DNA of 64,000 bases from Coleofasciculus chthonoplastes F2-STO-03 (GTDB lineage: Bacteria; Cyanobacteriota; Cyanobacteriia; Cyanobacteriales; Coleofasciculaceae). The notes under the pieces are model-generated. The model was given only the letters and a program-made list of their open reading frames with translations. It did not search any database and was not told where the DNA came from. Where the stretch lies: NCBI GenBank assembly GCA_040222015.1, contig JAVJWO010000211.1, positions 1 through 64,000 of the forward strand, given 5' to 3'. Shown piece by piece: positions 46,129 to 61,780 of this stretch. Position numbers and translations under genes: made by a program. How positions within the stretch are numbered: the first letter of the stretch is position 1; the number at the start of each line of letters is the position of its first letter.

Positions 46129-46225
46129 GTAATGTTACAGAAATTCCTAAAATAGATTTTGCACAATCGCTAGTTTGTGCTTAAAAAGCCGACATTGTGA
46201 ACCATCCCCGATTTCATCACTAACT

Positions 46226-48907
46226 ATGAGAATTCTAAAAATCCAGACGTTACGCGGTCCCAACTACTGGAGCATTCGACGCCATAAACTTATTGTCATG
46301 CGTCTTGATTTGGAGGAACTCATCGATAAACCCTCCAATGTACTTCCGGGATTCTACGAGGGACTGGTAGAGACGCTACCCAGTCTAGAGGATCATTTCT
46401 GTTCTCCGGGTGTTCGGGGTGGGTTCTTAAGTCGGGTCAAAGAAGGCACGATGATGGGGCATATTATCGAACATGTGGCGCTGGAACTTCAGGAACTGGC
46501 AGGAATGCGCGTTGGGTTTGGTCGGACTCGGGAAACTGGGACAGCCGGAATTTATCAAGTTGTTTTCGAGTACATTGACGAGCAGGCGGGTCGCTATGCG
46601 GCTAGGGCGGCTGTGCGCTTGTGCCAAAGTATTATCGATACCAGAGCCTATCCCCAACGGGAGTTAGCTCAAGACTTAAAAGACCTGAGCGAACTGGCTC
46701 GCGATGCGGCGTTAGGACCGAGTACAGAAGCCTTGGTCAAAGAAGCCGACGCCCGAGGCATTCCCTGGCTTACCCTAAGTGCCAGAGCCATGATTCAGCT
46801 TGGCTACGGGTTGCATCAGAAGCGAATTCAAGCCACCTTGAGTGATTACTCCGGAATTTTAGGGGTGGAATTAGCCTGTGATAAAGAAGGGACGAAGCAG
46901 ATTTTGTTTGATGCGGGGGTTCCGGTTCCCCGAGGCACAACGGTGCTTTATCTGGACGAATTAGACAGCGCGATCGAGTATGTGGGGGGGTATCCGATTG
47001 TGATTAAACCCCTGGATGGTAATCATGGGCGGGGGATTACGATTGATATTCGCAACTGGGACGAAACGGAACAAGCCTATGATCGTGCTAAAGATATCTC
47101 CCGTGCGGTGATTGTGGAGCGCTATTATCCCGGTTTTGACCACCGTGTTTTGGTGATTAACGGGAAAGTTGAAGCCGTCGCCCAGCGGATTCCAGCACGG
47201 GTAATTGGCGATGGTAAGTCCACGGTTGAAGAACTGATTGAACGGACGAACCGCGATCCCAATCGGGGCGACGGTCATGATAACGTCCTGACGAAAATTG
47301 TCGTTGATCATACGAGTTTGAGTGTCTTAGAACGTCAGGGTTACAGTTTGGATACCGTCCTCCGAAAAGATGAGGTTTGTTATTTACGGGCAACAGCTAA
47401 TCTGAGTACGGGGGGTATTGCCATAGACCGCACGGACGATATCCACCCGGAAAATGTTTGGTTAGCGGAGCGCGTGGCTAAAATTATTGGTCTAGATATT
47501 GCCGGCATTGATATTGTCACCCCCGATATTAGCCAACCCCTACGGGACATTGACGGCGTGGTGGTGGAAGTAAATGCGGCACCTGGTTTCCGGATGCATG
47601 TCAGTCCCTCGGAAGGCTTACCGCGCAATGTCGCCGCCCCGGTGATGGATATGCTGTTTCCACCGGGACAAGCCAGTCGGATTCCGATTCTGGCGGTGAC
47701 AGGGACGAATGGGAAAACCACCACCACTCGCTTGCTTGCCCATATCTATAAGCAAACGGGTCATGGGGTTGGCTATACCACCACGGATGGGATCTACATT
47801 GGCGATCATCTGGTGGAACAAGGAGACACCACTGGACCCCAAAGCGCTCAAGTGATTCTCAAAGATCCCACGGTTGAGGTGGCGGTATTGGAAACAGCCC
47901 GAGGTGGGATTCTGCGATCGGGGTTAGCCTTTGATGCCTGTGATGTGGGTGTTGTTTTAAATGTCTCGGCGGATCACTTGGGCATTGGCGATATTGATAC
48001 CCTTGACCAGATGGCGCATCTTAAGAGTGTAGTGGCTGAATCGGTGAGTCCTGCTGGGTATGCCGTTCTTAATGCTGAAGATCCCCTAGTGACAGAAATG
48101 GCACAGCGCGTCAAAGGGCATGTGGCATTTTTCTCCATGAATCCCGACAATGAGGTGGTGAAAGCTCATACCCGCCAGGGAGGTTTAGCAGGGGTGTATG
48201 AAAATGGCTACCTATCATTAATCCGAGGCGAATGGACGCTGCGGATTGAGAAGGCGGAAAATATGCCTGTAACGATGAGAGGAATGGCACCGTTCCAAAT
48301 TGCTAATGCCTTAGCCGCTAGCCTCGCCGCCTTTGCTCAAGGGGTTCCGATTGAGGCAATTCGTGACGCTTTGACCACATTCCGGGCGTCTGTGGCGCAG
48401 ACACCGGGACGGATGAATTTATTTAATCTGGGTGAGTATCATGCTTTGGTGGATTATGCCCATAATGCCGCCAGTTATGAAGCCGTGGGCGGTTTTGTCC
48501 GCAATTGGTCCGGGGAACGGGTTGGCGTTGTCGGTGGACCTGGCGATCGCCGAGATGAGGATTTTATTAACTTGGGACGACTCTCGGCGGACATTTTTGA
48601 CCGGATCATTATTAAAGAAGATGCGGATTTACGGGGACGTCCCAGTGGTGACGCGGCGGAGTTGATTCGCAAGGGAATTCTGGAGACGAATCCGGATCGG
48701 GAGTATGAAATTATTCTCAATGAAACTGAGGCGATTAATACGGCGTTAGACCGAGTGGTGTCTGGTGGTTTGGTGGTGATTTTCCCGGAAAAGGTGAGTG
48801 GGACGATTCGTTTGATTGAGGAACGGCGTCCTCTGCCAGAGAATGGGTATCAACCCGTGGGTGAGTCTCAAGTGGATTTAAAGCCATCGGTGGCGAACCC
48901 TGGGTGA
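46226..48907 (+). CDS. cphA: Cyanophycin synthetase
   Basis: MRILKIQTLRGPNYWS, ATP-grasp (KPLDGNHGRG), Mur-ligase (VTGTNGKTT, DYAHN). Confidence 0.97.
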   Translation: MRILKIQTLRGPNYWSIRRHKLIVMRLDLEELIDKPSNVLPGFYEGLVETLPSLEDHFCSPGVRGGFLSRVKEGTMMGHIIEHVALELQELAGMRVGFGRTRETGTAGIYQVVFEYIDEQAGRYAARAAVRLCQSIIDTRAYPQRELAQDLKDLSELARDAALGPSTEALVKEADARGIPWLTLSARAMIQLGYGLHQKRIQATLSDYSGILGVELACDKEGTKQILFDAGVPVPRGTTVLYLDELDSAIEYVGGYPIVIKPLDGNHGRGITIDIRNWDETEQAYDRAKDISRAVIVERYYPGFDHRVLVINGKVEAVAQRIPARVIGDGKSTVEELIERTNRDPNRGDGHDNVLTKIVVDHTSLSVLERQGYSLDTVLRKDEVCYLRATANLSTGGIAIDRTDDIHPENVWLAERVAKIIGLDIAGIDIVTPDISQPLRDIDGVVVEVNAAPGFRMHVSPSEGLPRNVAAPVMDMLFPPGQASRIPILAVTGTNGKTTTTRLLAHIYKQTGHGVGYTTTDGIYIGDHLVEQGDTTGPQSAQVILKDPTVEVAVLETARGGILRSGLAFDACDVGVVLNVSADHLGIGDIDTLDQMAHLKSVVAESVSPAGYAVLNAEDPLVTEMAQRVKGHVAFFSMNPDNEVVKAHTRQGGLAGVYENGYLSLIRGEWTLRIEKAENMPVTMRGMAPFQIANALAASLAAFAQGVPIEAIRDALTTFRASVAQTPGRMNLFNLGEYHALVDYAHNAASYEAVGGFVRNWSGERVGVVGGPGDRRDEDFINLGRLSADIFDRIIIKEDADLRGRPSGDAAELIRKGILETNPDREYEIILNETEAINTALDRVVSGGLVVIFPEKVSGTIRLIEERRPLPENGYQPVGESQVDLKPSVANPG

Positions 48908-49426: not shown

Positions 49427-50080
49427 TCAGAATAGACTCCAACTCTGATTACCCCCCATGTAGTTGAAGAGAATAAAAGGAAACCCCACAAGATAGTGGG
49501 CAACTACAGGACCAGAAATACTTCTGAACTTCCAGTAATTTTTCCCCCATAGCCAGCCCAACAGCCAGGTTCCAGCAACGATTAAAACACTACGAAAGTA
49601 AATGTGAGAGAACGCAAAAAGACTGGCAGAGCAAAGTATCACAGCTCTCTCATGAGAGCCAATTATTTTTTCTAAAACCAGGAAAGCGAATCCTCTCCAT
49701 ACCAGTTCTTGAAATACCGACATGCCAAAATACCAGCCATAGTAACCGAACTCTAGATACAGAGAACGAGGGTAACCTAAAAACCAAGGGAGCAAAGCCA
49801 AAAATATCCAACCTAACAGAAGTAGGGACAAAGTAGAGGGCAGTATCTCACGTACTGATGAAAGCTCTAGCGAAAGCCCTAGTTTATGTGGAGCAACTCT
49901 GTTTATAGACACATAGCTTATCATGACGACTGTTGGAAAGCCGCCTAGGGTGAGAAAGAAAAACTGTCTGGTCAAAAAATCTGAATAGAGCAGCACAGAG
50001 GGCATAACAAAAGCAATGAACAATAGCCATATTTCTGGTTTTAATACTTTTATTTGTTGTAGCCATCTGAGTTTAAACAC
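49427..50080 (-). CDS. CPBP (CAAX/Abi) family intramembrane metalloprotease
   Basis: QELVWRG, FAFSH, AH motifs in a polytopic membrane protein; GGAGGG RBS. Confidence 0.82.
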   Translation of the reverse strand: MFKLRWLQQIKVLKPEIWLLFIAFVMPSVLLYSDFLTRQFFFLTLGGFPTVVMISYVSINRVAPHKLGLSLELSSVREILPSTLSLLLLGWIFLALLPWFLGYPRSLYLEFGYYGWYFGMSVFQELVWRGFAFLVLEKIIGSHERAVILCSASLFAFSHIYFRSVLIVAGTWLLGWLWGKNYWKFRSISGPVVAHYLVGFPFILFNYMGGNQSWSLF

Positions 50081-50102
50081 AATTAATCCCTCCAGCTAGC
50101 GA

Positions 50103-50550
50103 TAGTATTTAAAAAGCCGTATTGAAACAAATTACCTCCTGTGAGCCTTCATCTATCCTTCTCCACCCCTTGCTCTGATACCAGTCGCTTCGGCGATTGG
50201 CGCTCAACGGGTTTGTCGGTGGAGTTTTTTATTGGGGATGGATATCGCTGGATAGAACAGGGTACAGCCCAAACTAGAACCCTATTTAATTCTGACGCCG
50301 AGCATTTAACAACCATCAATCCAAAACCTGATCACAACAGCGGGAGGTACAGGCGCATCCAAGCCGTACCGATATAGGACAAGAAAACCATACCGTTTTT
50401 CAACTCCCCCGCTCTGACTCAAATAGCAGCGGGGTTTCTTATACCAAGGAGTAAAAAGCGTGACGAATGTAACTGAAGGATTAAGGCGCTCCGTGGTGGT
50501 GTTCTCCAAGAACTACCTACCCATCAGTCGAGTCAATATGAAGCGGGCGG
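50103..50550 (+). repeat. Diverged direct-repeat copy of 60904-61352 (leader, 78-aa ORF and first ~30 codons of HNH)
   Basis: Colinear high similarity between the two segments. Confidence 0.93.
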
Positions 50551-50681
50551 GTATCTTTGCTCCCCCCAGCTTCCCCAGCTTCCCCTGCACCCTACCCCCC
50601 CACAAAACTTATTCAGCAGACCCGAAGTAAATCAATCTAACTCCCCCATCTCCCTCATCCTCCCCAGCTCCCCCATCCTCC

Positions 50682-51752
50682 CTAATCTCTCACCTCGCGC
50701 ACGGTTATTGAAAAGCCATCTCCCAACTTAACGGCAATCAAGTCATAGCATTGCTTTCCCCTATCCGTTTGCCAACCCAATTCTTGTTCGAGTGGTTCTC
50801 CGGTTTCCACCACCTGCACGAACTTTTCAAGCAATCCTGGGGCGAGTCGATTCAGCAGTTTCTTTTGCCCTGATTTACTCGTAAGTTCTTCTCGTTTTTT
50901 CCCCAAGAGTTTGGCAAAGACGGGATTAACCAACAGATAGCGAAAGTCCACGATTTCTCCGGTGACTAAATCCCTCACCGTTTGCAGGGCGGCAATTCCA
51001 TCTCTAGAACTGTTCAACAAACTGGTGAGGAGGGCGCGAGATTGGTAGAGAATTTCTGCGGTTTGTTGATGTTTCTCGATTTGTTGTCGGAGTTCGTATT
51101 TTTGCTGTTGCAGGGTGAGGTGAGTTTGGATGCGGGCGATGACTTCTTCGGGTTGGAAGGGTTTGGTGATGTAATCCACTCCCCCAACTTGAAAGGCTTT
51201 GACTTTATCGAATATTTCGTTTAATGCACTGATGAAAATAATGGGAATGTCTGAAGTTTCTTCGTCGGCTTTCAGGGTTGAGCAGACTTGATAGCCATCA
51301 ATATCGGGCATTTTAATATCCAGTAAGATGATATCCGGGGGGTGATTGCGGACGGTTTTTAATGCCATTGTGCCGTTGGTTACGCGGCGGACTTTGTACC
51401 CCTGTTTGGTTAAGAGGTCGTTTAAAAAATGCAGGTTTTCGACGAGAGCGTCAACAATTAAGATATTGCCTTTGGGGTCTTCAATGTGGTAATTATTGCT
51501 TTGTTCTAAGAGTAAACGGCGGAACTTATTTTTGGTGACTTTTTCGTCGAGTAAGTCGGAAAGACGTTTCCATAATTGGGAGGCTAAATCTTTAATATGC
51601 CCCACGCTCATGTATAAGCGATCGGCGACGGTGCTGTAGGTTTCGTTGTCCCAGGCGGCTTTGAGGATTTCTTTTTCTGGTGCGGTGAGTTGTTTATCGG
51701 TTTTAGCTTGAAGGATAGATTCGACAAACTCTAGGGCTTCTTCAAGAGTCAT
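50682..51752 (-). CDS. Regulator with N-terminal HTH, receiver and PAS-like domains
   Basis: TY..VA..LYMSVGHIKD..LWKRLS HTH; LLDIKMP, DYITKPF receiver (acidic DD pocket changed to DA). Confidence 0.85.
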   Translation of the reverse strand: MTLEEALEFVESILQAKTDKQLTAPEKEILKAAWDNETYSTVADRLYMSVGHIKDLASQLWKRLSDLLDEKVTKNKFRRLLLEQSNNYHIEDPKGNILIVDALVENLHFLNDLLTKQGYKVRRVTNGTMALKTVRNHPPDIILLDIKMPDIDGYQVCSTLKADEETSDIPIIFISALNEIFDKVKAFQVGGVDYITKPFQPEEVIARIQTHLTLQQQKYELRQQIEKHQQTAEILYQSRALLTSLLNSSRDGIAALQTVRDLVTGEIVDFRYLLVNPVFAKLLGKKREELTSKSGQKKLLNRLAPGLLEKFVQVVETGEPLEQELGWQTDRGKQCYDLIAVKLGDGFSITVREVRD

Positions 51753-52275
51753 GGGCAGTTACGATATCATCTTATCAATGTTTTTGATGCTTGCACCCCG
51801 GTTTTTATTTTAGCTGCTCATTTCTAGAAGTTCCAACCCTTAATGAAGGTCAACCCTTCTTTTTTAAGCTTTTGGGGGAAAATACGGAGAATAAATACGC
51901 CGTTGACGTAGATAAATGTATTACAGATTTGGTGATTGAATGAAATACATTCCAGGACGTGTCTAATAGGATATAGTAACCACCATAGCGGTTAGGTTAG
52001 GACGCATCATTTTTAGGACTTACGCTTTCTTTACGGCACAGGCACGGCAATGCCGTGTCCCTACCCTAAATGGCGTTTGTGCGTAAGTCCTGATTTTGTA
52101 GAGACGTTGCATGCAACGTCTGGAACAACAGTTTGTTTCTCCTAATCGATGTGTCTACTACTATAATTGCATGGCTGCTACCTGATTGGGTTGAAAATGT
52201 ATGTAATACGGATAAGTTTTTCGTCTTACATACGGATGTGTTTTAGTGCGTGATATGGCATTCAGTGGCAACGAG

Positions 52276-52345
52276 CCGACTTTTCCAACTTTATGATCCG
52301 ACTTTCCCGACTGACAGGGGCTAGGGCGGGGAGCCATGATAGAGA
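52276..52345 (+). promoter_or_regulatory. CCGAC-repeat operator/promoter block, copy 1 (copy 2 at 57025-57094)
   Basis: 70-bp segment with four CC(G/A)AC units; 6 mismatches to copy 2 by manual count. Confidence 0.75.
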
Positions 52346-52443
52346 CATGGAAAGGATGCAGCCTCTTGCCAAAGAGCCACTGAATCCAATCCTTAGCCGG
52401 ATAAATACGGCGTCAAAGCTAGTAGATGTTCGGCAGAAAAATA

Positions 52444-52470
52444 ATGTGGATTTGGTTTCGTCGTCGATAA
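52444..52470 (+). CDS. Micro-ORF MWIWFRRR (possible alternative start 52426)
   Basis: Homologous to 55687-55716 with synonymous codon changes and the same downstream hairpin. Confidence 0.55.
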   Translation: MWIWFRRR

Positions 52471-52725
52471 AAATCCATTCTGATCGACAATTCATCAGCA
52501 ATTGAACATCGGTAATTGAAAAATCTAAGCTGAGTGTAAACTTACTACTCAGCTTAGTAATAATTCATCCCGATAATAACAACCAACGTAGTAAATGGAG
52601 CGCAGGCGAAATCATACCGCACTGGACTATATTGGGGCGGAATTTTGGATGCAAGAAAAAAGGAACAGAAGCCTGTTCCTTGATAGTTTTCACAACCTAT
52701 TGGGTTCACTACCAGTTTTTAAGTC

Positions 52726-53586
52726 ATGTCAAATTCTCAATCAGCTAGTGCATCAGGCATTCGGGGTTGCTCTGAAGAGTTAGAGAAAGCATTTTGGCAG
52801 CTATGGCAGCAGAATCGAGATTATCTTTACCGTTGCTGTCTCAAGTGGATGGGTGGGAATCCTACTGATGCGGAAGAGGCGCTCAGTCGGGCAATGCTCA
52901 AAGCTTGGGATAAATTGCCGGATCATGCCGAAAAAATCACTAATTTCAGAGCTTGGCTCACCCGATTAATTCATAATCTCTGTATCGATATACACCGAGA
53001 ACGTCGCCGGAAAGCCATGCAAATGGAAAGTATTGAAGAAATAGCCGCTAGAGACAACTCAGCGGTTATTTCTTGTTTGGACTCTCCTGAATTAGCACTT
53101 CTATATCATGAGTTTGGACAGTACCTTCGCCGCGCTATCGATACTCTTCCTTCTCGACTACGCACTCCGTTTGTTCTGCGTTACTACCACCAGATTTCCT
53201 ATCAAGAGATAGCCCAACAACTCGCCATCTCGCTCGATAACGTTTACAAGCGCATCCAACAGGCACGAGATATTCTGCAAAAGCGTTTGAGTAGGTATTT
53301 TTCAGGGTTGGGTGATTCTTTGTTCGATTCCCCCCAGTTCAATACTGCAAGGGATACCTCTCCCCCAACCCCTCTCTTTGTAGGAGAGGGGTGTATTGCT
53401 CCGGCTTATCTAGGGGGGGTTAAAGCCAGATGTGAGCAATCTGATGAAACGAGGATATCCGATTTGACCGCCGCGATCGCTACCGAGTGCATGAACGAGA
53501 CAATTAATTATCACGTCACAGCATCATGTCTAGAAACACTGCACTACGGATGGTATCGCTCACTCTCTCCTCTGGGGTGGAACTGA
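52726..53586 (+). CDS. ECF sigma-70 factor with C-terminal extension
   Basis: DAEEALSRAMLKAW..FRAWL..NLCID (region 2); LP..R..F.LRY..SYQEIAQQL (region 4). Confidence 0.92.
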   Translation: MSNSQSASASGIRGCSEELEKAFWQLWQQNRDYLYRCCLKWMGGNPTDAEEALSRAMLKAWDKLPDHAEKITNFRAWLTRLIHNLCIDIHRERRRKAMQMESIEEIAARDNSAVISCLDSPELALLYHEFGQYLRRAIDTLPSRLRTPFVLRYYHQISYQEIAQQLAISLDNVYKRIQQARDILQKRLSRYFSGLGDSLFDSPQFNTARDTSPPTPLFVGEGCIAPAYLGGVKARCEQSDETRISDLTAAIATECMNETINYHVTASCLETLHYGWYRSLSPLGWN

Positions 53587-55292
53587 ACGCTTACCTGGTT
53601 TTAGACGAAAAGCCAATCCGAATTGACCAGAAGCTGAAAACATTAAGTCAGTACGTGCAACAGTATCCCTCTGGATGGAAGAAACGGTTGGAATTGGCGA
53701 ATCTGCTATACGCAATGGGTTCCATTGAGCAGGCGGTTGAGGAGTATCGCCAAGTGATTTCGCGGCAACCCCTATTGATTGAGGTACGGTTGAAGTTGGG
53801 GAAACTCTTACAGCTCATGGGACAAGAGGTTGAGGCAATAGCGGTTTATGAGAGTGCCTTGCCCTTGGTTCGCAATCAGGCGACTCGGCAGCATATTGGT
53901 GGATTGATAGCCGTTTGTAGAGGTGACAGTCAGTCAGCAAGTCAGGCTTTTGAGTCAGCGGCTTCCCTGGAACCTGACAATGCGGCTCACTGGCTGGCGT
54001 TGGGGCAGGTGCAGATGGGGAGGGAGGATGGGGTTGCAGCTTTGCGAGTGTTTGATACGGTTTTGTCACTGAACCCGGATGATATTGTAGCGCTGATTGG
54101 CAGCTATGATGCGAGTCGGGCAGTGGGGAATGTTCGGGAAGCGCAGCGGCGGTTGAGCAGAGTGCTAGAGTTGGCTCCTGGTGATTTCCGGGCGCTCAAA
54201 CGACTGGCGGATATTCGTTGCCGGACGAGATTGGTATCCGGTGAAGAGGGGAAGCAAACCAAACAGATCATTAGTTGTGTTCTGCAACTGGCTCCTGATG
54301 CGGCAGATGCCCATGAGTTACTGGCATATTATCACCTTTTCCGAAAGGAGTGGGCGAAAGGGGTAGGGGTGTTGGAACAGTTTACTAAGGAACACCCGAA
54401 TAATCCGAGGGGTTGGTATTACTTTGGGCGGTGCTTGTTCCAGATGGGGGAATATCAGAGGGCGGCTGAGGTGATGCTGAAGGCTTATCGTCTGTATCCC
54501 CAAGATTGTGAAATTTATCGGGCGTTGTGTGAGATTTTGCCTGTAACCTCTCCATCTACCCCTCTCGATCCCCCCCAGCCCCCTAATCCCCCCTGCTTGG
54601 TAAGGGGGGACGTTAGAAACAGGGGGGAGTCAGAGGAGGCAACGCTTTCTAACTGCACGGGGGGAACTCCTCTCAAAGTCCCCCTTTTTAAGGGGGATTT
54701 AGGGGGATCTAACCGTCAAGTAACCCTTGCATCAATAGTAAAAGAGATGCTGGAGCGGTTTCCTGAGCGCTGGAGTGTTTGGACGACGGCGGGGCGGGTG
54801 CTGGTGGAAAGCTTTCAGGCAGTTGAGCGGGGGTGTAGTGTCTCTCTTCAGGGAACGCAACTTCAGCCGCAGTTGCCGGATGCTTGGTTTTGTCATGGGC
54901 GGGTGTTGGCGCTGGCGGGGAAATACGGAGAGGCGATAGAGGCGTTGCAGCATGGATGGCAGTTGTTGCCCCAAGAGGGGAGTTATCTGCAATCGGTGTC
55001 TGCGGCGGTGTGGCTGGGGGAAAGTTATCGGGTGTTGGAGGATGAGGTGGCGAGTCGGAAATGGTTGGAGGAGGCTTGTCAGTTTGCTCAGGAATTGATG
55101 GAGTTTGACCCAGCGATGGCTTGTTACTGGCAAGGGAGAGCGTTGTTGGGGTTGGGAGATATCAAGGGCGCAGTAGAGGCGTATCGAAGTGGGTTGAGTC
55201 AGCGGTTGCTCTACCCTTTTCGTGGGGAGGTTGAGTCGGCTGTGAAACGGTTGAAAGGTAGGGGACGAAAGGGTTCTCGTGCTAAAGCGTAG
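53526..55292 (+). CDS. Tetratricopeptide repeat protein overlapping the ECF gene
   Basis: Multiple TPR units; in-frame palindromic repeat insertion ~54548-54710. Confidence 0.9.
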   Translation: MSRNTALRMVSLTLSSGVELNAYLVLDEKPIRIDQKLKTLSQYVQQYPSGWKKRLELANLLYAMGSIEQAVEEYRQVISRQPLLIEVRLKLGKLLQLMGQEVEAIAVYESALPLVRNQATRQHIGGLIAVCRGDSQSASQAFESAASLEPDNAAHWLALGQVQMGREDGVAALRVFDTVLSLNPDDIVALIGSYDASRAVGNVREAQRRLSRVLELAPGDFRALKRLADIRCRTRLVSGEEGKQTKQIISCVLQLAPDAADAHELLAYYHLFRKEWAKGVGVLEQFTKEHPNNPRGWYYFGRCLFQMGEYQRAAEVMLKAYRLYPQDCEIYRALCEILPVTSPSTPLDPPQPPNPPCLVRGDVRNRGESEEATLSNCTGGTPLKVPLFKGDLGGSNRQVTLASIVKEMLERFPERWSVWTTAGRVLVESFQAVERGCSVSLQGTQLQPQLPDAWFCHGRVLALAGKYGEAIEALQHGWQLLPQEGSYLQSVSAAVWLGESYRVLEDEVASRKWLEEACQFAQELMEFDPAMACYWQGRALLGLGDIKGAVEAYRSGLSQRLLYPFRGEVESAVKRLKGRGRKGSRAKA

Positions 55293-55309
55293 ATACCTCG
55301 AAAAAAATA

Positions 55310-55356
55310 GCCTCTAACTCGAAAAATTCAGAAATTGACCTGTGGAATCGTCTTAT
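55310..55356 (+). promoter_or_regulatory. ECF-like promoter repeat, copy 1
   Basis: GCCTCTAACTCGAAAAATTCAGAAATTG-N8-AATCGTCTT; ATTCAGA-N16-CGTC geometry. Confidence 0.7.
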
Positions 55357-55686
55357 AGGTGTAGAGACGGAAGACACTCACCTTGATTTAATTCAGGAGT
55401 CGAGAGAACATCACTCCTTTAACCACATTCCGACTACTTGCCTAACCTCTGCTATTTAGTATTTAAAACAGCAGAAATACTGAGAATTAATCCGAGCTTT
55501 TTATTTTTGAGTTTGGGTTAATTTTCATTTGATCACTTTAGATATTTAGAGTAAATTAAAGTTTATGTAAATTCTAGATTTTAACCTTGACATTTATATT
55601 ACTTGTCAATTACCTTTAAAAAAGGTTGAAGATAAAAACTCAACCGACAAAACAAGTAAACCTAGTAAAAAAGGAGAGAAAGGAAG

Positions 55687-55716
55687 ATGTTTATTCGTTG
55701 GTTCCGTAGGTTTTAA
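55687..55716 (+). CDS. Micro-ORF MFIRWFRRF
   Basis: Purine-rich RBS (AAGGAGAGAAAGGAAG); paralog at 52444. Confidence 0.6.
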   Translation: MFIRWFRRF

Positions 55717-55904
55717 AAATCAATTCTGATCGGAAATCCATCAGTAATTGAAAATTGATGTAGGGTGGGCACTGCCGTCAGCGCCTACCCTACATCTTTT
55801 GTTGCTGACCTCAACTCGATGACAAAATTTGGTGCAATGGGTAGAAATTAGACTTCTCGTGCTTGAAGTAGGTTTGATGGGGTGCATCGAGTTGGGAAAA
55901 AACT

Positions 55905-55949
55905 GCCTCTAACTCGAAAAATTCAGAAATTGCTTTTTGAAATCGTTTT
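55905..55949 (+). promoter_or_regulatory. ECF-like promoter repeat, copy 2 (directly upstream of the protease gene)
   Basis: Same 28-bp core, variable spacer, AATCGTTTT. Confidence 0.7.
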
Positions 55950-55988
55950 CTTAATGTAAGGAAATCGACTCTAAAAAGAGGAGAAAAA

Positions 55989-56528
55989 ATGCCCCTAACA
56001 CCATTGAAACAAATTCAGCAAGACACATGGCTTCACTGCGGAGGAGGTCCTGCACGCAACGGTGTTTGTTACTATATGTGTAACTTCATTGAGAGTGACA
56101 AAGGTCCTTGGAATAACCCAGGCTCGTTCGCTAATGCAGTCACAGCGGCACAAAACTTTGCAAGTGGGACAGCAATGATGAATTACGCGAAAGCGCAGAA
56201 CTTAAGAGTAGCTCCACAACAACAATATCAAACTGTGCCGGGCGCATTAGTAACGAACCGTATATACCGCGCTGGGTTATGGGTAGGATCTAACCCGCCA
56301 GCTTCGGGAGATGGGAACCACGAAATAATAATTGTCACCGGAAATAACGACGACATAATTTATTTTGAACCCAACTTTGGGTTCTATCAAGCAAGCAACC
56401 CTGGGTTTAACAATCGGCAAGCCTTGGAGTATTTCATTAACCAACAATACACTGGAACGCCAGTGGCTAACTTCCGCTATTACAATGTGCGAAGTAACTC
56501 CTCAGCCACTCCGAAGGGTTTTAACTAA
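55989..56528 (+). CDS. YopT/AvrPphB (C58)-like papain-fold cysteine protease, stand-alone
   Basis: NGVCYYM (Cys), GNHEIII (His), YFEPNFG (acidic residue in the F.PN.G motif); GAGGAG RBS. Confidence 0.65.
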   Translation: MPLTPLKQIQQDTWLHCGGGPARNGVCYYMCNFIESDKGPWNNPGSFANAVTAAQNFASGTAMMNYAKAQNLRVAPQQQYQTVPGALVTNRIYRAGLWVGSNPPASGDGNHEIIIVTGNNDDIIYFEPNFGFYQASNPGFNNRQALEYFINQQYTGTPVANFRYYNVRSNSSATPKGFN

Positions 56529-56640
56529 CGAGGAGAGATCAAGCGAAAGCCCAAACTACAGGAAGAATAATAACGCAGATCGCACTTGGTAGAGTTTGAG
56601 AATAGGGTGATCGCTTGTCAGAATTATTAGTTAGGAAAAC

Positions 56641-56665
56641 AGGGGGGCAATTGCCCCTCTTTTTC
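56641..56665 (+). terminator. Intrinsic terminator after the protease gene
   Basis: GGGGCAATTGCCCC hairpin plus T-tract. Confidence 0.6.
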
Positions 56666-56890
56666 ATTTGAAGGAAGGCGATATCCTGCTCTCAGGGAAG
56701 TTGAGGAAGCTGCGAAACAATTAGAACCTATGCTGTCGAAGGCTTCTCGTTCTTGAGGTTAGTTTCACTGTTAGGACTTACGCAGCTGCTCTAGATGTAG
56801 GGTGGGCAATGCCCACCTTACTACTATGCATAGTGTTAAAAAAGTAAATTTGCGTAAGTCCTGACTGTGTACATTGAGTTAGAGAAAAAA

Positions 56891-56937
56891 GCCTCTAACT
56901 CAAAAAATTCAGAAATTGATGACTGAAATCGTCTTAT
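56891..56937 (+). promoter_or_regulatory. ECF-like promoter repeat, copy 3 (upstream of the ABC exporter)
   Basis: GCCTCTAACTCAAAAAATTCAGAAATTG-N8-AATCGTCTT. Confidence 0.7.
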
Positions 56938-57024
56938 AAGTGGACAGGCGAAAGGAAGAAAATCCAATCACTCCCCTGCCTCCCTGCTCCAAGAACTCCC
57001 TCACCTCCTTCTTCACAGAACAAT

Positions 57025-57094
57025 CCGACTTTTCCGACTTTACGATCCGACTTTTCCGACTGACAGGGGCTAGGGCGGGGAGTGATGATGGAGA
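57025..57094 (+). promoter_or_regulatory. CCGAC-repeat operator/promoter block, copy 2
   Basis: CCGAC at 57025, 57034, 57047 and 57056. Confidence 0.75.
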
Positions 57095-57242
57095 AAAGAA
57101 TGCAGTCTATCAAACAGATTATTTATGACTAAAAATAACTGTAGGGTGGGCATTGCCCACCCTAATTAATAAGAAGGCTATCCAAATTAAGACTCCCAAA
57201 GTAAAAGTATAAATTGTGCCTCTATACTAACTCCCCTAACCT

Positions 57243-58910
57243 ATGGAACTGATTTGGTTCTTCAAAACCCTAAAAAAATACATTGCCGACTACAAATGGC
57301 AATTCTTTTTACTCTTTATCTGCCTAATATTCGACGCCGCCTTTGACTCAATCTTCCGAGCCAGTTTAAAATTTATCATCGACGCCGCCATCGTTCCCCA
57401 AAACTACAGACTTCTAATTCTCATCCTATCCTTGCTCGTCGTCGGAGCCTTTTTATATATCTGCATCGGCATACTCGGACTTTCCCTCGGCGCACGTTTA
57501 GGCATTGCCATCACCAACAATATCCGATACTCTCTATTCGAGCATCTGCAAAACCTTTCCATGGAATTTTTCGGACGGCGTTCCGCCGGGGATATTGTCA
57601 AATGCCTCATGTCCGATGTCCAGAAGGTGGAAAACGGTGTCATTACCATGGGACTAACCGTGGTTATTCTAGTACTGTGTAACCTGCTGTTTGCCATAAT
57701 TTTCCTCTTCTTACTCAATTGGCAATTAGCCCTACTCAGTTTAATTGGGTTAACCCTGTGCGCCATTGCCCCAGCCAAAATTGCCAGCCTCGCCACCAAC
57801 GCCGGTTATCAGTTATTACAAAAAGAAGGACAAATTGCCAACGTTGTCGAAGAGAATATCCTCTCCCAAGCCGTTGTTAAGATATTCGGACTAGAAAGCC
57901 GAATGTCCCAGGAGTTTTCCGTCCATCTAAATGCCTTAAAACAAATCTATATCCGGGCAACCTTTCTCTCCTACTTAACTCACAAAATCCCTATGGTGGG
58001 TTTTGTCCTGACGCAGATTGTAGTTTTAAGTATCGGGGCAGTCATGACCTACCAGGGTATCATTTCAGTAGGGACTCTTGCCTCCTTTCAAGTCTTCTTA
58101 CTCGGATTGAATCTCAACATCCTCGGCTTATCTTCATCAATCCCTATGTTTATCGAAGGCGTAGCAGGGCTGCAACGCATCAGCGACATCTTATCAGAAA
58201 CTCCTGCAATTAAAGATGCACCAGATGCGATAGACTTACCTCACTTTGAGAGTGAAATTTACTTTGACGATGTTACCTTTAATTACTCTTCTGAAAGAAG
58301 TGGAATCAAAAATCTATCCCTAAAGATTCGCCAAGGAGACTTTGCCGTATTTGTCGGTGCTTCTGGCGCGGGAAAAAGTACAATTATCAACTTACTGATG
58401 CGATTTTATGACCCGGATAAAGGACGCATTCTGTTTGATGGCGTTGATTTGCGTCATGCCACAGTACGCTCCCTCCGTTCTCAAATTGGACTGGTTTCTC
58501 AGGATGTGATTCTATTTAACTGTTCCGTGCGAGAAAATATCCGCATGGGCTATTTAGACGCCACGGATGAACAAGTGGAAGCCGCCGCCAAAGCCGCCGA
58601 AATTCACAAGTTTATTTTGTCCTTACCCCAAGGCTACGACACCCCAGTAGGAGACAGAGGCGGACAGTTATCCGGGGGACAACGGCAACGAATCGCCTTA
58701 GCCAGGGCGCTGGTGAGAGATCCCGCGATTCTGATTCTGGATGAAGCAACATCCGCCCTCGATCCCGCGACGGAAGCGGAAATCCTCGCCACTATTGAGC
58801 GTATCACCCAAGACCGCACCGTAATTTTCATCACCCACCGCATGGCTCATGCGATGCGTGCGGATGTCATGTACGTGCTGGAAAACGGCGGCTTGGTGGT
58901 GAGTGGGTGA
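57243..58910 (+). CDS. ABC exporter (TM plus ATPase, no C39 domain)
   Basis: 6 TM helices, GASGAGKS, LSGGQRQR, LDEATSALD. Confidence 0.93.
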   Translation: MELIWFFKTLKKYIADYKWQFFLLFICLIFDAAFDSIFRASLKFIIDAAIVPQNYRLLILILSLLVVGAFLYICIGILGLSLGARLGIAITNNIRYSLFEHLQNLSMEFFGRRSAGDIVKCLMSDVQKVENGVITMGLTVVILVLCNLLFAIIFLFLLNWQLALLSLIGLTLCAIAPAKIASLATNAGYQLLQKEGQIANVVEENILSQAVVKIFGLESRMSQEFSVHLNALKQIYIRATFLSYLTHKIPMVGFVLTQIVVLSIGAVMTYQGIISVGTLASFQVFLLGLNLNILGLSSSIPMFIEGVAGLQRISDILSETPAIKDAPDAIDLPHFESEIYFDDVTFNYSSERSGIKNLSLKIRQGDFAVFVGASGAGKSTIINLLMRFYDPDKGRILFDGVDLRHATVRSLRSQIGLVSQDVILFNCSVRENIRMGYLDATDEQVEAAAKAAEIHKFILSLPQGYDTPVGDRGGQLSGGQRQRIALARALVRDPAILILDEATSALDPATEAEILATIERITQDRTVIFITHRMAHAMRADVMYVLENGGLVVSG

Positions 58911-59221
58911 CACACAGATTTTTCCGGGTATAGCAGTAGACAGATCGATTAGGACTTTCGGCACCATTGTAGAGACGTTCCATGGAACGTCTCTACATAA
59001 ATGATGAGGTGACTTCAGGTTCAAGTCGTGAGTAGATTGGCAACAGAGCCATTACAGCAGTTTGCTCTGCTATGCGGTACATTGTCGATCCCCCTCGCAT
59101 CCCCCTTTTTAAGGGGGACTTTTATTTACTGTACTTTATTACAGCGCAAAGCGCTGTATCTTGAATCATTAGGGCTAAATCTGTCACAATATACTAAGTA
59201 AACGTTCCCATCAATGCCGTT

Positions 59222-60100
59222 ATGCGCCAAACACACATCAGATTTGATTGGGCGATTAAAAAATTACTGAGAAACAAAGCTAATTATGGTGTTTTGGCAG
59301 GTTTCTTGAGTGAGTTATTGGGGAAACCAATCAAGATCCAATCAATACTCGAAGGTGAAAGCAATCAACAAGCGGAGGATGACAAGCTAAATCGAGTCGA
59401 TATTCTGGCTGAAAATGACCAGGGGGAATTGATTCTCATTGAAGTGCAAAACAATACAGAGCAAGATTATTTCCATCGGATGCTCTATGGCACTGCGAGA
59501 TTAATTACTGACTTCCTGGAAAAAGGGGAGCCTTATGGGAAGGTCAAAAAAGTTTATTCAGTGAATGTCGTATACTTTTCTCTGGGACAGGGAGATGATT
59601 ATATTTACAAAGGAAAATTAGATTTTTGTGGTCTTCACTTAGAAGACAGGTTGGGTCTATCAATAAACCAGCAGAAGCTGTTTAATATCAAAGACGTCTC
59701 TGAGATTTTTCCCGAATATTATGTGATTAAAGTCAACAATTTTAACGACATAGCAAAAACAACCTTAGACGAATGGATATATTTCTTGAAAAAGAGCCAA
59801 ATCAAAGATGAATTTACAGCCCAAGGTTTAGCGGAAGCGAAGGAAAATTTACTCGTCGATAGCTTGAGCGAAGAAGAAAGAGCGAACTACCTGAGATTTA
59901 TGGAGAATCAGCGTTATGAAATCAGCCTGATAGAAGGTTCGCGTTCAGAGGGAAGATTAGAGGGAATTGAGGAGGGTATAGAGCAAGGCAAACAGCAAGC
60001 AAAGATTAACATAGCCAGAATCTTAAAACAAAAAGGGACTGATATTGACACAATCACAGAAGCAACAGGACTTACTAGAGAAGAGATTGAGAAACTGTAG
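59222..60100 (+). CDS. Rpn/PD-(D/E)XK nuclease family protein
   Basis: DWAIKKL, RVDILA..LIEVQ, EG.EEG.EQG repeats and C-terminal HTH. Confidence 0.9.
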   Translation: MRQTHIRFDWAIKKLLRNKANYGVLAGFLSELLGKPIKIQSILEGESNQQAEDDKLNRVDILAENDQGELILIEVQNNTEQDYFHRMLYGTARLITDFLEKGEPYGKVKKVYSVNVVYFSLGQGDDYIYKGKLDFCGLHLEDRLGLSINQQKLFNIKDVSEIFPEYYVIKVNNFNDIAKTTLDEWIYFLKKSQIKDEFTAQGLAEAKENLLVDSLSEEERANYLRFMENQRYEISLIEGSRSEGRLEGIEEGIEQGKQQAKINIARILKQKGTDIDTITEATGLTREEIEKL

Positions 60101-60495
60101 CGCTTCTAGATGAAACTAGCGCTTACTTATTGGAAGCGGGCTAAATGATAGTAGACATTATGCCCACCAGTTTTTTGGGGCGAGGTAATAAGTAGTCGGA
60201 CAAAAGAAAACGGCACGCTCATGAACTTTTGTAATCCTTGTCGGGCATCCGTTGTAGAGAAAGGCAATCTGAAGGAAGGGGGGGAAAGCGATCGCGTGTG
60301 ACAATTGCGTAAGTCTTGAGCTCAAATCATTTTAATTTATTTTGGCAACAAAGAGCGAGCGCTTCCCACAAATGTCAAACAATGTCGGAAAATGTCGGTA
60401 AAATTATTGTCCTAGGTCATCCTCTTAATGGGACTTATCATAGGGACACGATATGTCGTGTCCCTACAGATAGGGCATTTTGAATAGGTGGATAC

Positions 60496-60861
60496 CTAAC
60501 GCGCTGCTTTAGCTCTAGATGTCTCCGGCGGCATACTCTCCAAACTGAGAGGCACCATATCGCCGTTAAACGTCAATCCTAATAACATCGGTTCCTGGGG
60601 TTGAATAAACTTGCCCGTGAGTACACACCGCTCTTCTTGCTGGGCGGTGGCGGGAATGCTGGCTCTGATATCGTAGACCGAAAAGTTAGGTCGATAATCG
60701 CCCAATTTCTGCTGAACATAGTTCCAGAGGATATCTCGAATTAGGGCTTGATAGCCTTGGTTGCCAGATAGATCTTTGAGCTTCTCCTTTAACTCTCTCT
60801 CCAAGCGGATGCTGGTGACTTCCATGTCAGTGGTTGAAGTCCTAGGCGCAGTACGTATCAT
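60496..60861 (-). CDS. Ribbon-helix-helix repressor, TrcR-like
   Basis: VTSIRLERELKEKLK..GYQALIRDIL RHH; divergent from an HNH/alr0857-like operon, as I recall for Anabaena trcR. Confidence 0.7.
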   Translation of the reverse strand: MIRTAPRTSTTDMEVTSIRLERELKEKLKDLSGNQGYQALIRDILWNYVQQKLGDYRPNFSVYDIRASIPATAQQEERCVLTGKFIQPQEPMLLGLTFNGDMVPLSLESMPPETSRAKAAR

Positions 60862-60891: not shown

Positions 60892-60909
60892 GTAATACAA
60901 GTGTAGTAT
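60892..60909. promoter_or_regulatory. Candidate RHH operator GTAATAC-AAGT-GTAGTAT
   Basis: Tandem GTARTA units in the divergent promoter. Confidence 0.45.
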
Positions 60910-60941
60910 GTAAAAAGCAGTATTGAAACAAATTACCTCCT

Positions 60942-61178
60942 GTGAGCCTTCATCGATCCTTCTCCACCCCTTGCCCTGATACCAGTCGCCTCGGCGATTG
61001 GCAGTCAGCAGGTTTGTCGGTGGAGTTTTTTATTGGGGATGGATATGGCTCGATAGAACAGGATACAGCCCAAATCAGAACTCTATATAACTCTGACGTC
61101 GAGAATTTAACCAGTATCAATCCAAAACCAGATCACAACAGCGGGAAGTACAGGCGCATCCAAGCCGTACCGATATAG
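60942..61178 (+). CDS. 78-aa leader ORF (paralog 50141-50377)
   Basis: Frame kept open in both copies with an invariant C-terminus (YRRIQAVPI); coding status uncertain. Confidence 0.4.
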   Translation: MSLHRSFSTPCPDTSRLGDWQSAGLSVEFFIGDGYGSIEQDTAQIRTLYNSDVENLTSINPKPDHNSGKYRRIQAVPI

Positions 61179-61261
61179 GACGAGAAAACCATACCGTTTT
61201 TCAACTCCCCCGCTCTGACTCAAACAGCAGCGGGGGTTTCTGATACCAAGGAGTAAAAAGC

Positions 61262-61780
61262 GTGACGAGTGTAACTAAAGGATTAAGGTGTTCAGTGGTG
61301 GTGTTTTCCAAGAACTACCTCCCTCTGAGTCGAGTCAACATGAAGCGGGCGGTGACGCTTCTGGTGACTGGGAAAGCCGAACCGCTAGATTGGTGTAAGA
61401 GTCAAGGCTATCCAGTGCATTCACCCAGCTTAGTCTTACTGGTTCCCGAACAGATTCGCTTGACCAAAGCCAATAGCGATCGCGTCTGGAAAGTCCCGCC
61501 CGTAAATCGCCGGGAAGTCTTACGTCGAGACAAGCATCGTTGCCAATACTGTGGTAGCCCCAAACGGCTCACCCTCGACCATGTTATCCCCCGTTCTAAG
61601 GGCGGAAACCATCGTTGGGACAATGTAGTTACTGCCTGCCAACGGTGCAATAGTCAAAAAGGCGATCGCACGCCTGAGCAAGCGGGAATGACTCTACTCA
61701 CCCAGCCCAAAGCGCCTATGCATCCCACTGTAGCTTTTGCCGAACAGTTCTGGCGCGAACAGCACGTCCACCTGGAATAA
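61262..61780 (+). CDS. HNH endonuclease
   Basis: RDKHRCQYCG..LTLDHVIPRSKGG..WDNVVTACQRCN. Confidence 0.93.
   Translation: MTSVTKGLRCSVVVFSKNYLPLSRVNMKRAVTLLVTGKAEPLDWCKSQGYPVHSPSLVLLVPEQIRLTKANSDRVWKVPPVNRREVLRRDKHRCQYCGSPKRLTLDHVIPRSKGGNHRWDNVVTACQRCNSQKGDRTPEQAGMTLLTQPKAPMHPTVAFAEQFWREQHVHLE

Follow-up and report, generated by a model that had tools for sequence, protein, structure and literature searches.

Two described groups of extracytoplasmic function (ECF) sigma factors come closest to the regulator reported here. ECF237, as described by Casas-Pastor et al. (2021, PMC7826278), includes Cyanobacteria, has RebB genes in its genomic context, and carries a C-terminal extension of about 40-100 residues with a conserved stretch of about 22 residues and no autoregulatory motif; one example of the group is from Moorea producens (PMC8999054). 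ECF42 proteins, in the passages of PMC8999054 devoted to them, have a fused tetratricopeptide repeat (TPR) extension of about 200 residues that is essential for activity, and a YCII-related neighbor. In the account of the Pseudomonas aeruginosa PA14 reb cluster given in PMC8322103, the sigma factor FecI2 and a co-required second regulator, RcgA, switch on anti-eukaryote genes. On the peptide side, RopB-SIP is described with leaderless ultra-small open reading frames (ORFs) of 8-10 residues, a TPR-type protein, the cysteine protease SpeB and hydrophobic leaderless communication peptides (LCPs; PMC10518010), and biarylitides and myxarylin with a five-residue ribosomal precursor, a P450 and, in some clusters, an S-adenosylmethionine (SAM) methyltransferase (PMC12951456). 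Here we analyze a locus of the cyanobacterium Coleofasciculus chthonoplastes F2-STO-03 in which an ECF sigma factor gene overlaps the gene for a TPR protein and is accompanied by three copies of a promoter-like motif, P, a cysteine protease gene, two micro-ORFs and an ATP-binding cassette (ABC) exporter gene. It lies in the first 64,000 nucleotides of contig JAVJWO010000211.1 (assembly GCA_040222015.1), the whole stretch analyzed, which we call the window.

The features listed below form two nested modules: module A, comprising the ECF-TPR pair, P and the cargo genes behind it, and module B, comprising the peptides and the exporter. At the level of genome comparison, four properties are established: the pair as a split fusion, the motif and its orientation, the exchange of cargo, and the linkage of peptide, exporter and methyltransferase. 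The locus is real and conserved, and its wiring is apparently undescribed. An earlier sequence-only reading of the window had not recognized the architecture as a described system, and a literature search that left most subscription journals outside its coverage returned no account of the ECF-TPR pair, its promoter or the peptide module; nor do the available passages of PMC11119718 describe the pair. That reading had placed a divergent helix-turn-helix (HTH) receiver regulator, the ECF, the overlapping TPR gene, a YopT-like protease gene and the exporter, with a promoter repeat in three copies and a CCGAC block in two. Every element it named was located where it had been put, and the micro-ORF region itself is also duplicated within the locus. 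The features of module A are as follows.

52726..53586, forward strand: ECF sigma factor (sigma2 and sigma4), ECF237-like, from Pfam and TIGR02937 matches and alignments.
53526..55292, forward strand: TPR protein of 588 residues, whose gene starts 61 nt within that of the ECF (-1 frame); homologous to the C-terminal part of ECF-TPR fusions.
55315..55353, forward strand: P1, promoter-like motif, from position weight matrix (PWM) and pattern search.
55910..55948, forward strand: P2, promoter-like motif, from the same searches.
55989..56528, forward strand: probable papain-fold, C58/YopT-like cysteine protease of 179 residues, from fold, Atlas features and conserved residues.
56896..56934, forward strand: P3, promoter-like motif, from the same searches as P1.

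The sigma factor matches Sigma70_r2, r4_2 and TIGR02937 above cut-off and has sigma2 and sigma4 without sigma3, as ECF proteins do. Its C-terminal tail of about 90 residues is variable, and only the last ~27 residues, ending in INYxVTAxCLE, are conserved. This variable tail with a conserved end, the lack of autoregulation (P stands before the ECF in 1 of 73 loci), a RebB protein among the cargo and the presence of this ECF in Moorena all recall ECF237; the passages of PMC7826278 on that group differ in that they do not mention a TPR partner, a promoter acted on, a regulon of cargo genes or a module of peptides. The ECF therefore fits the ECF237 description, with membership unconfirmed by accession or group hidden Markov model (HMM): the group example OLT65459.1 is not among the accessions listed, at most four per protein, for the Moorena ECF clusters.

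Species-representative genomes, when scanned, yielded 63 ECF-TPR loci, and a TPR match was found in 23 of 401 genomes of the phylum Cyanobacteriota, this genome counted. By title, carriers are Microcoleus, Laspinema, Nostoc, Symploca, Moorena, Okeania, Prochloron and one Candidatus Parabeggiatoa. Counted by hand with duplicate loci included, the two genes overlap in 66 of 79 pairs, in one relative frame throughout and by 61 nt in 50 of them. TPR domains occur in 10 of 22 ECF relatives longer than 500 residues, and full ECF-TPR fusions measure 813-837 residues. Because these natural fusions carry both parts (the 813-residue P0146 aligns at 49% to the ECF over 173 residues and at 37% to the TPR protein over 582), the pair reads as the split form of a one-component regulator. 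We propose that its two overlapping genes are probably translationally coupled and that the proteins re-associate. The binding check suggested by the sequence-only reading, made by complex prediction, lends this weak support: the pair scored 0.38 against 0.00 for the best control, with runs sharing at least 28% of contacts and a partner predicted local distance difference test (pLDDT) of at least 55, a mark reached by 116 of 157 solved pairs and 2 of 215 mismatched pairs, and one that two parts of a single split gene may reach as well because they are alike.

A programmed frameshift yielding a fused ECF-TPR protein is not favored: the overlaps show no visible conserved slippery run, and across pairs the ECF stop moves (overlap 31-61 nt) and the TPR start stays put. 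Both genes carry in-frame inserts of repeat-like DNA here, in the ECF gene at ~53330-53473 and in the TPR gene at ~54617-54721; the latter has many copies in same-genus genomes and aligns as a gap against the fused protein. Two further ECFs of the family, P0140 and P0143, are fused to a C-terminal PF03497 domain (precomputed Pfam); they are single-member clusters and possibly read-through or chance fusions. A plasmid collection gave one weak match to the ECF and none to the methyltransferase described below.

P is a 39-bp motif with the consensus TAACTCgAAAAATTCagAAATtG-n11-CGTCT. A PWM search of this 7.7-Mb genome found three sites, all at the locus, and an iterated PWM found 147 matches in 71 of 91 loci (138 in 68 of 87 after removal of four duplicate loci). 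Among 133 scorable sites, 98 have a same-strand ORF of at least 70 residues in the next 400 nt, 25 have a micro-ORF and 10 have neither, so that 123 precede a same-strand gene, against 23 of 133 in the antisense control; the median distance to the next gene is 75 nt. In 53 of 61 loci the TPR stop is followed by P at a distance of no more than 600 nt. Its pattern occurs in 27 of 401 cyanobacterial genomes, namely all 23 with a TPR match and four others (reversed control, 0), and is absent from 374 of the 378 genomes without a TPR match, many of which are distant kin. Solitary distant sites also occur, six of them on one complete chromosome. The absence of P from those 374 genomes and the distant sites are independent parts of the co-occurrence evidence. 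Taken with the sense orientation, they bear out the proposal that the repeat behaves like a promoter of this ECF, and transcription very probably starts from it. The description of the locus as self-contained holds for this genome, and the distant sites elsewhere limit it.

The motif itself may be bipartite. Since TPR-less paralogous ECF loci keep the same core (TTCACA...CGTCT) and miss the distal TAACTCGAAAAA block, P fits a sigma-read core joined to a type-specific upstream element. The CGTC element of P presumably resembles ECF -10 boxes. In L115 and L117 the distal block has moved 2 nt upstream, and the PWM missed both sites. The TPR-less paralogues (L132, L142, L145, L156, L164 and L172) have a long acidic tail, a shorter P and a different upstream block, and precede clusters with an ATP-grasp ligase, an amidinotransferase-like gene (by eye; no Pfam match) and a methyltransferase.

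P might instead be mainly a recombination or target site that collects cassettes. Its unusually long conserved core, the tandem cassettes, the rapid exchange of cargo and the duplicated pieces of TPR end plus P would suit such a site. We consider this very improbable, given the strict sense orientation ~75 nt before start codons, the solitary distant sites, the tight co-occurrence with the sigma factor and neighborhood clusters that hold no conserved recombinase. Dispersed repeats (miniature inverted-repeat transposable elements [MITEs] or repetitive extragenic palindromes), which the sequence-only reading had named among the findings that would undo its proposal, are rejected for P and for CCGAC, which have only 3 and 2 copies in the genome; BLAST of the genome found no full-length copy of three locus repeats (D1, D3 and D4) outside the locus. 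The other spacer palindromes are common genome-wide repeats with up to ~176 BLAST matches, a correction to that reading. A search of 49500-60500 for known RNA families returned none at gathering thresholds. Between 55290 and 57250, a scan for sigma70-type promoters called 6 sites, against 3.5 +/- 1.9 in shuffles. An inverted repeat, TTGACA...TGTCAA (55590-55612), in the AT-rich stretch before micro-ORF 2 is a possible second promoter or operator and was not among the sites called.

How the TPR protein acts on the sigma factor can be weighed against these data. It could be an anti-sigma factor or a ligand-gated inhibitor, keeping the ECF in check for as long as no signal comes, with everything else as in the two-module explanation. 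Its position as the +1 gene coupled to the ECF and the weak binding support agree with such a role, and P stands so rarely before the ECF (1 of 73) that the sigma factor would need post-translational control. We nevertheless judge inhibition rather unlikely: fusions elsewhere join the TPR part covalently to the ECF, ECF42 is reported to depend on its TPR extension for activity (PMC8999054), and the distal promoter block accompanies the TPR-type ECF and is absent at the TPR-less paralogue. We lean toward a co-activator, in which sigma factor and TPR protein together would start transcription at the long promoter P copied before each cargo gene. This resembles ECF42 in linking sigma activity to a TPR module; it differs from the ECF42 of those passages in that the TPR part, ~530-590 residues, is mostly a separate overlapping gene rather than a fused extension of ~200 residues, and in that no YCII neighbor was seen here.

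The cargo behind P comprises 115 genes in 60 clusters, among them lectins, proteases, lipases and pore-former-like proteins, and differs even between close strains. A Pfam scan of 54 representatives (58 listed) gave matches for 21 and none for 33. Binding or structural domains include CVNH (2), jacalin, LamG, fascin-like, crystallin, C2, PLAT and peptidoglycan-binding domains; enzymes include patatin (2), M35 (2), a trypsin-like protease, a PatA/PatG-type S8 protease (cyanobactin-protease-like) and GNAT; the remainder are C80 with a TcdA/TcdB pore domain, a weak aerolysin, RebB, DUF4231 and a weak TTR-52. One recurrent cargo protein is aegerolysin/actinoporin-like by Atlas features (0.89), which we treat as a lead only. 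Among 23 further proteins, 22 of them near distant P sites, 10 had matches, including an OAA-family lectin, M4 and S8 proteases, DyP, a glyoxalase and an ectoine synthase-like protein. RebB itself had no match in this genome in a search run without a positive control. Cargo can also be repeated: Moorena loci L107, L108 and L110 have three or four tandem cassettes of P plus a peptidoglycan-binding domain facing the ECF-TPR pair. A short ORF (MKWLRFL or MQWLRFLLAD) near the start of C2-domain cargo in L032, L061, L067, L071 and L161 may be an artifact of the start region.

The protease is the local example of this exchange. Its stretch is followed by a terminator-like hairpin (56641-56660). Pfam and NCBIfam HMM scans gave no match to it. 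It scores 0.95 by Atlas features to clusters in which 28-57% of members carry PF03543, and its best fold match is AvrPphB (Foldseek E 0.011; VIA Z 9.4, root-mean-square deviation 3.7, 141 aligned). Across 28 sequences C27 and H111 are invariant and E127 nearly so. It resembles Peptidase C58 (YopT/AvrPphB) in its probable papain-like fold and its invariant Cys and His, and differs in having Glu at the third triad position (Cys/His/Asp in C58) and in forming a stand-alone family of ~180 residues. Named relatives are from Bacteroidota and Bacillota. In RNA runs, contigs of ~95%-identical relatives cover the regulator, ECF, TPR, P1 and exporter and leave the protease stretch uncovered, so it counts only through joints that skip it: 55496 to 57141 in two runs and 55362 to 56578 in one. 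The sequence-only reading had made the protease part of the circuit; it appears rather to be strain-specific, exchangeable cargo behind P.

The outcome would be a plug-in regulon of mostly secreted or attack/defense-type proteins, which comparison indicates are swapped quickly between strains. Defense is the common reading of the cargo that we favor, with some targets not fitting it, and the likeliest role would be inducible or stochastic defense against grazers, parasites or competitors. FecI2/RcgA, as presented in PMC8322103, offers a model for module A, stochastic expression included; it differs in that its partner is a transcription factor rather than a TPR protein and its reb cargo is fixed, and FecI2 is compared here by function only.

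Module B consists of the following features.

52444..52470, forward strand: micro-ORF 1, MWIWFRRR, with a 3' hairpin at ~52474-52517.
55687..55716, forward strand: micro-ORF 2, MFIRWFRRF, with a strong Shine-Dalgarno sequence and 3' hairpins at ~55720-55751 and 55757-55796.
57243..58910, forward strand: ABC exporter (ABC_membrane and ABC_tran, no C39 peptidase domain), from Pfam.

Both micro-ORFs proposed by the sequence-only reading are present and belong to a peptide family. Micro-ORF 1 resembles the peptide gene that follows the CCGAC block in the homologous region of L131, but the stretch with the ribosome-binding site is gone and no intact Shine-Dalgarno sequence precedes it; it is probably silent or poorly translated, and the peptide likely to be expressed in this genome is that of micro-ORF 2. 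Loci of the Microcoleus-type clade carry, as their first cassette behind the TPR gene, a Shine-Dalgarno-led ORF of 5-9 codons whose flanks are fixed and whose coding part varies (for example MRRWRF, MYRIR, MFRWRF, MWRPRRF and MRFGYGRF). An Arg/aromatic micro-ORF with a ribosome-binding site lies at most 6.5 kb upstream of the exporter in 39 of 46 scorable loci (duplicates included, two loci near an edge set aside), against ~0.04 expected from the filter background, 99 of the 2090 micro-ORFs of this genome passing (~0.04 per search interval). Of the seven exporter loci lacking such a peptide, four have a more divergent exporter, two are truncated and one has MRGGPR. All six Arg codons are used among the peptide genes, and hairpins 3' of the stop reach z below -2 in 28 of 36, partly because of a common palindrome. 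Judged on these patterns, the micro-ORFs appear to be real genes and their peptides probably exported leaderless products. A second recurrent small ORF (MKVPIQAGH...), with a ribosome-binding site, stands just before the Arg-rich micro-ORFs in L132, L142 and L168 (L141 by eye).

In relatives, the exporter is followed by a 291-residue SAM methyltransferase, matched in 7 of 401 and 17 of 401 genomes. A fold search of it returned generic class I methyltransferases only. In a 40-row tree, the peptide-linked rows form one clade of 27 (support 100/99), 26 of them hand-labeled with a peptide, nested among enzymes of nonribosomal peptide synthetase (NRPS), ATP-grasp, tRNA-synthetase-like and ThcOx clusters, the last probably making azole-containing RiPPs (peptides made on the ribosome and modified after translation). 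The clade splits into a 5-mer and a 6-10-mer subclade. The seven five-mers require one change when mapped onto the exporter tree (equaled or undercut by 0 of 500 shuffles), six on the TPR tree (by 236 of 500) and five on the ECF tree; the mismatch with the TPR tree exists despite the micro-ORF adjoining the TPR gene. Peptide length class thus appears to track the exporter and methyltransferase rather than the TPR protein, which argues that the peptides are substrates of the former two and not TPR ligands. Export by the ABC transporter is quite probable, and methylation in relatives we only just favor. That the exporter goes with the peptides, as the sequence-only reading had suggested, agrees with both the 39 of 46 loci and the length classes. 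Relatives have the precursor, modifying enzyme and exporter of a RiPP cluster; this genome has the precursor and exporter, with the methyltransferase missing. Methyltransferase relatives fused to ThcOx-type N-terminal domains were seen in L147 and P0111-P0120; in L147 the fusion adjoins a ThcOx oxidase, probably an azole-RiPP cluster.

In the circuit first proposed for the window, the peptides would serve as RRNPP/LCP-like signals that leave through the ABC transporter and are then perceived by the TPR protein, which would turn the sigma factor on. Its layout, a leaderless peptide of 8-10 residues beside a TPR protein and a cysteine protease, recalls RopB-SIP-SpeB (PMC10518010), and the peptides vary strongly between strains. 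A signal role of this kind is nonetheless quite improbable. The majority of TPR loci lack a peptide gene of this kind; genomes without a TPR match (L131 and L134) can carry peptide, exporter and methyltransferase; and peptide class is scattered at random over both the TPR and the ECF tree, so that receptor and peptide neither consistently co-occur nor co-vary as in RRNPP/LCP systems. As far as the passages of PMC10518010 go, the likeness is of leaderless micro-ORFs near a TPR protein and a cysteine protease, with the peptides alike in size only: LCPs are hydrophobic, and the peptides here are cationic, Arg/aromatic and tied to an exporter and methyltransferase, and the TPR protein has no DNA-binding HTH. 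The TPR protein is probably the detached regulatory half of the sigma factor, as the natural fusions suggest, and not a peptide receptor.

Could the micro-ORFs instead be cis-acting leader or attenuator peptides, or small-RNA carriers, that control the exporter by ribosome stalling and are never secreted? Arg-rich ORFs followed by hairpins (28 of 36, as above), directly upstream of the exporter in several loci, would be expected of such leaders. We regard this as unlikely, since the micro-ORFs are often separated from the exporter by 1.5-5.8 kb that hold cargo with promoters of its own, and their class still tracks it; they also occur in tandem copies, and related methyltransferases belong to peptide-making clusters. 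The preferred reading of module B remains that ultra-short leaderless Arg/aromatic peptides of 5-10 residues would be translated from their own short, hairpin-ended transcripts, methylated, in genomes that have it, by the dedicated SAM methyltransferase, and carried out of the cell by the ABC transporter. Linkage and co-variation are observed, and the chemistry and export would follow from them. In this genome, module B sits under P and appears to have lost the methyltransferase. Compared with the biarylitides, as covered by the passages of PMC12951456, the likeness is in precursor size and in the SAM methyltransferase of relatives; the peptides here have 5-10 residues, variable sequence, no conserved cross-linking residues and a dedicated ABC exporter, and no P450 was found among the scanned neighbors.

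Upstream control may involve a divergent regulator and two repeat blocks.

50682..51752, reverse strand: winged HTH (wHTH), receiver and PAS-like regulator (Pfam Response_reg 4e-29; weak PAS_4 and HTH).
52270..52345, forward strand: CCGAC block 1, 9-bp direct repeats, candidate operator or promoter.
57019..57094, forward strand: CCGAC block 2, before the exporter and at the same position in several relatives.

The strict CCGAC pattern has three matches in the genome, all within the two blocks. Of 24 loci that have a divergent wHTH gene, 17 show CCGA pairs upstream of the ECF, vs 8 of 57 loci that lack one; four of those eight are chance matches in a coding region. The regulator adjoins the ECF in one clade only, by neighborhood comparison. 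The proposed tier in which it acts at the blocks is a correlation only and is weakened by the blocks that stand, with no adjoining regulator, before the exporter in several relatives and before the TPR-less ECF. The element is conserved and probably regulatory. That the wHTH-receiver protein acts at it, and so may gate the ECF operon and exporter, is tentative, a little short of an even chance, and is the weakest step of the mechanism. As a general site of the wHTH family CCGAC was rejected: none of the genome's 11 further wHTH genes has such a block upstream.

Taken as a whole, the two-module explanation, a split ECF-TPR regulon plus a leaderless peptide module, is in our judgment moderately probable. 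Several points weigh against it. The motif model was built from TPR loci, which makes the presence of P in TPR genomes partly circular; four genomes with no TPR match show the P pattern, and P is missing near the TPR gene in 8 of 61 loci. Complex scores of 0.60 or less among those passing comprise only 18 of the 157 solved complexes, plus both mismatches. Of the 54 cargo representatives, 33 have no Pfam match, and the glyoxalase, ectoine synthase-like, DyP and GNAT targets are not plainly defensive. For module B, the peptide filter was fixed after the peptides were seen, the exporter loci are kin and include duplicates, shared labels of kin and block recombination could produce the co-segregation with the exporter, and the SAM methyltransferase was searched for in this genome and not found. 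The RNA runs are contigs of ~95%-identical relatives with small word shares, and transcription is not readable from them.

A more far-reaching, joint reading, which we hold to be doubtful, is of a new class of leaderless, fast-diversifying ribosomal products of 5-10 residues in filamentous cyanobacteria, needing a methyltransferase and ABC exporter only, and deployed as plug-in defense cassettes, with lectins, proteases, pore-formers and R-bodies, under a two-chain ECF-TPR sigma factor whose TPR half reads an extra upstream block. If it held, the ribosome would have replaced the NRPS or ATP-grasp ligases of related clusters, and the peptides could act on membranes or mimic invertebrate RFamide signals. 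Many of them end in Arg-Phe or Arg-Gly-Phe, ends that we take to be like those of RFamides. Genes for 5-10-residue peptides with their own exporter seem to represent a type of natural product not yet described; this family, which has both an exporter and a methyltransferase dedicated to it, lies far below the usual gene-caller size, and the peptides are cheap to synthesize and test. On the regulatory side, an uncharacterized cyanobacterial ECF group would gain a partner protein, a regulon and a precisely defined promoter to act on, and P appears specific enough to serve as a genome-mining tag for defense-type genes. P already marks genes for CVNH, OAA-family and jacalin lectins, so that what these lectins do in nature and how they are regulated can be tested directly. 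Among the carriers are cyanobacteria that form soil crusts and mats (Microcoleus, Nostoc, Moorena and Symploca).

The locus appears to be gained and lost easily. One of five same-genus genomes keeps only regulator and exporter fragments at the site, and no ECF- or TPR-length match was among the matches listed for the five. A duplicated stretch of ~450 nt flanks the island (50103-50550 and ~60900-61350), with similar 78-residue ORFs at 50141 and 60942. Upstream, 46175-48907 holds what we take to be a cyanophycin synthetase-like gene, and 49427-50080 encodes a CAAX/Rce1-like protease that is absent from the same-genus locus. Downstream of the exporter, 59222-60100 is a PD-(D/E)XK nuclease-family gene.

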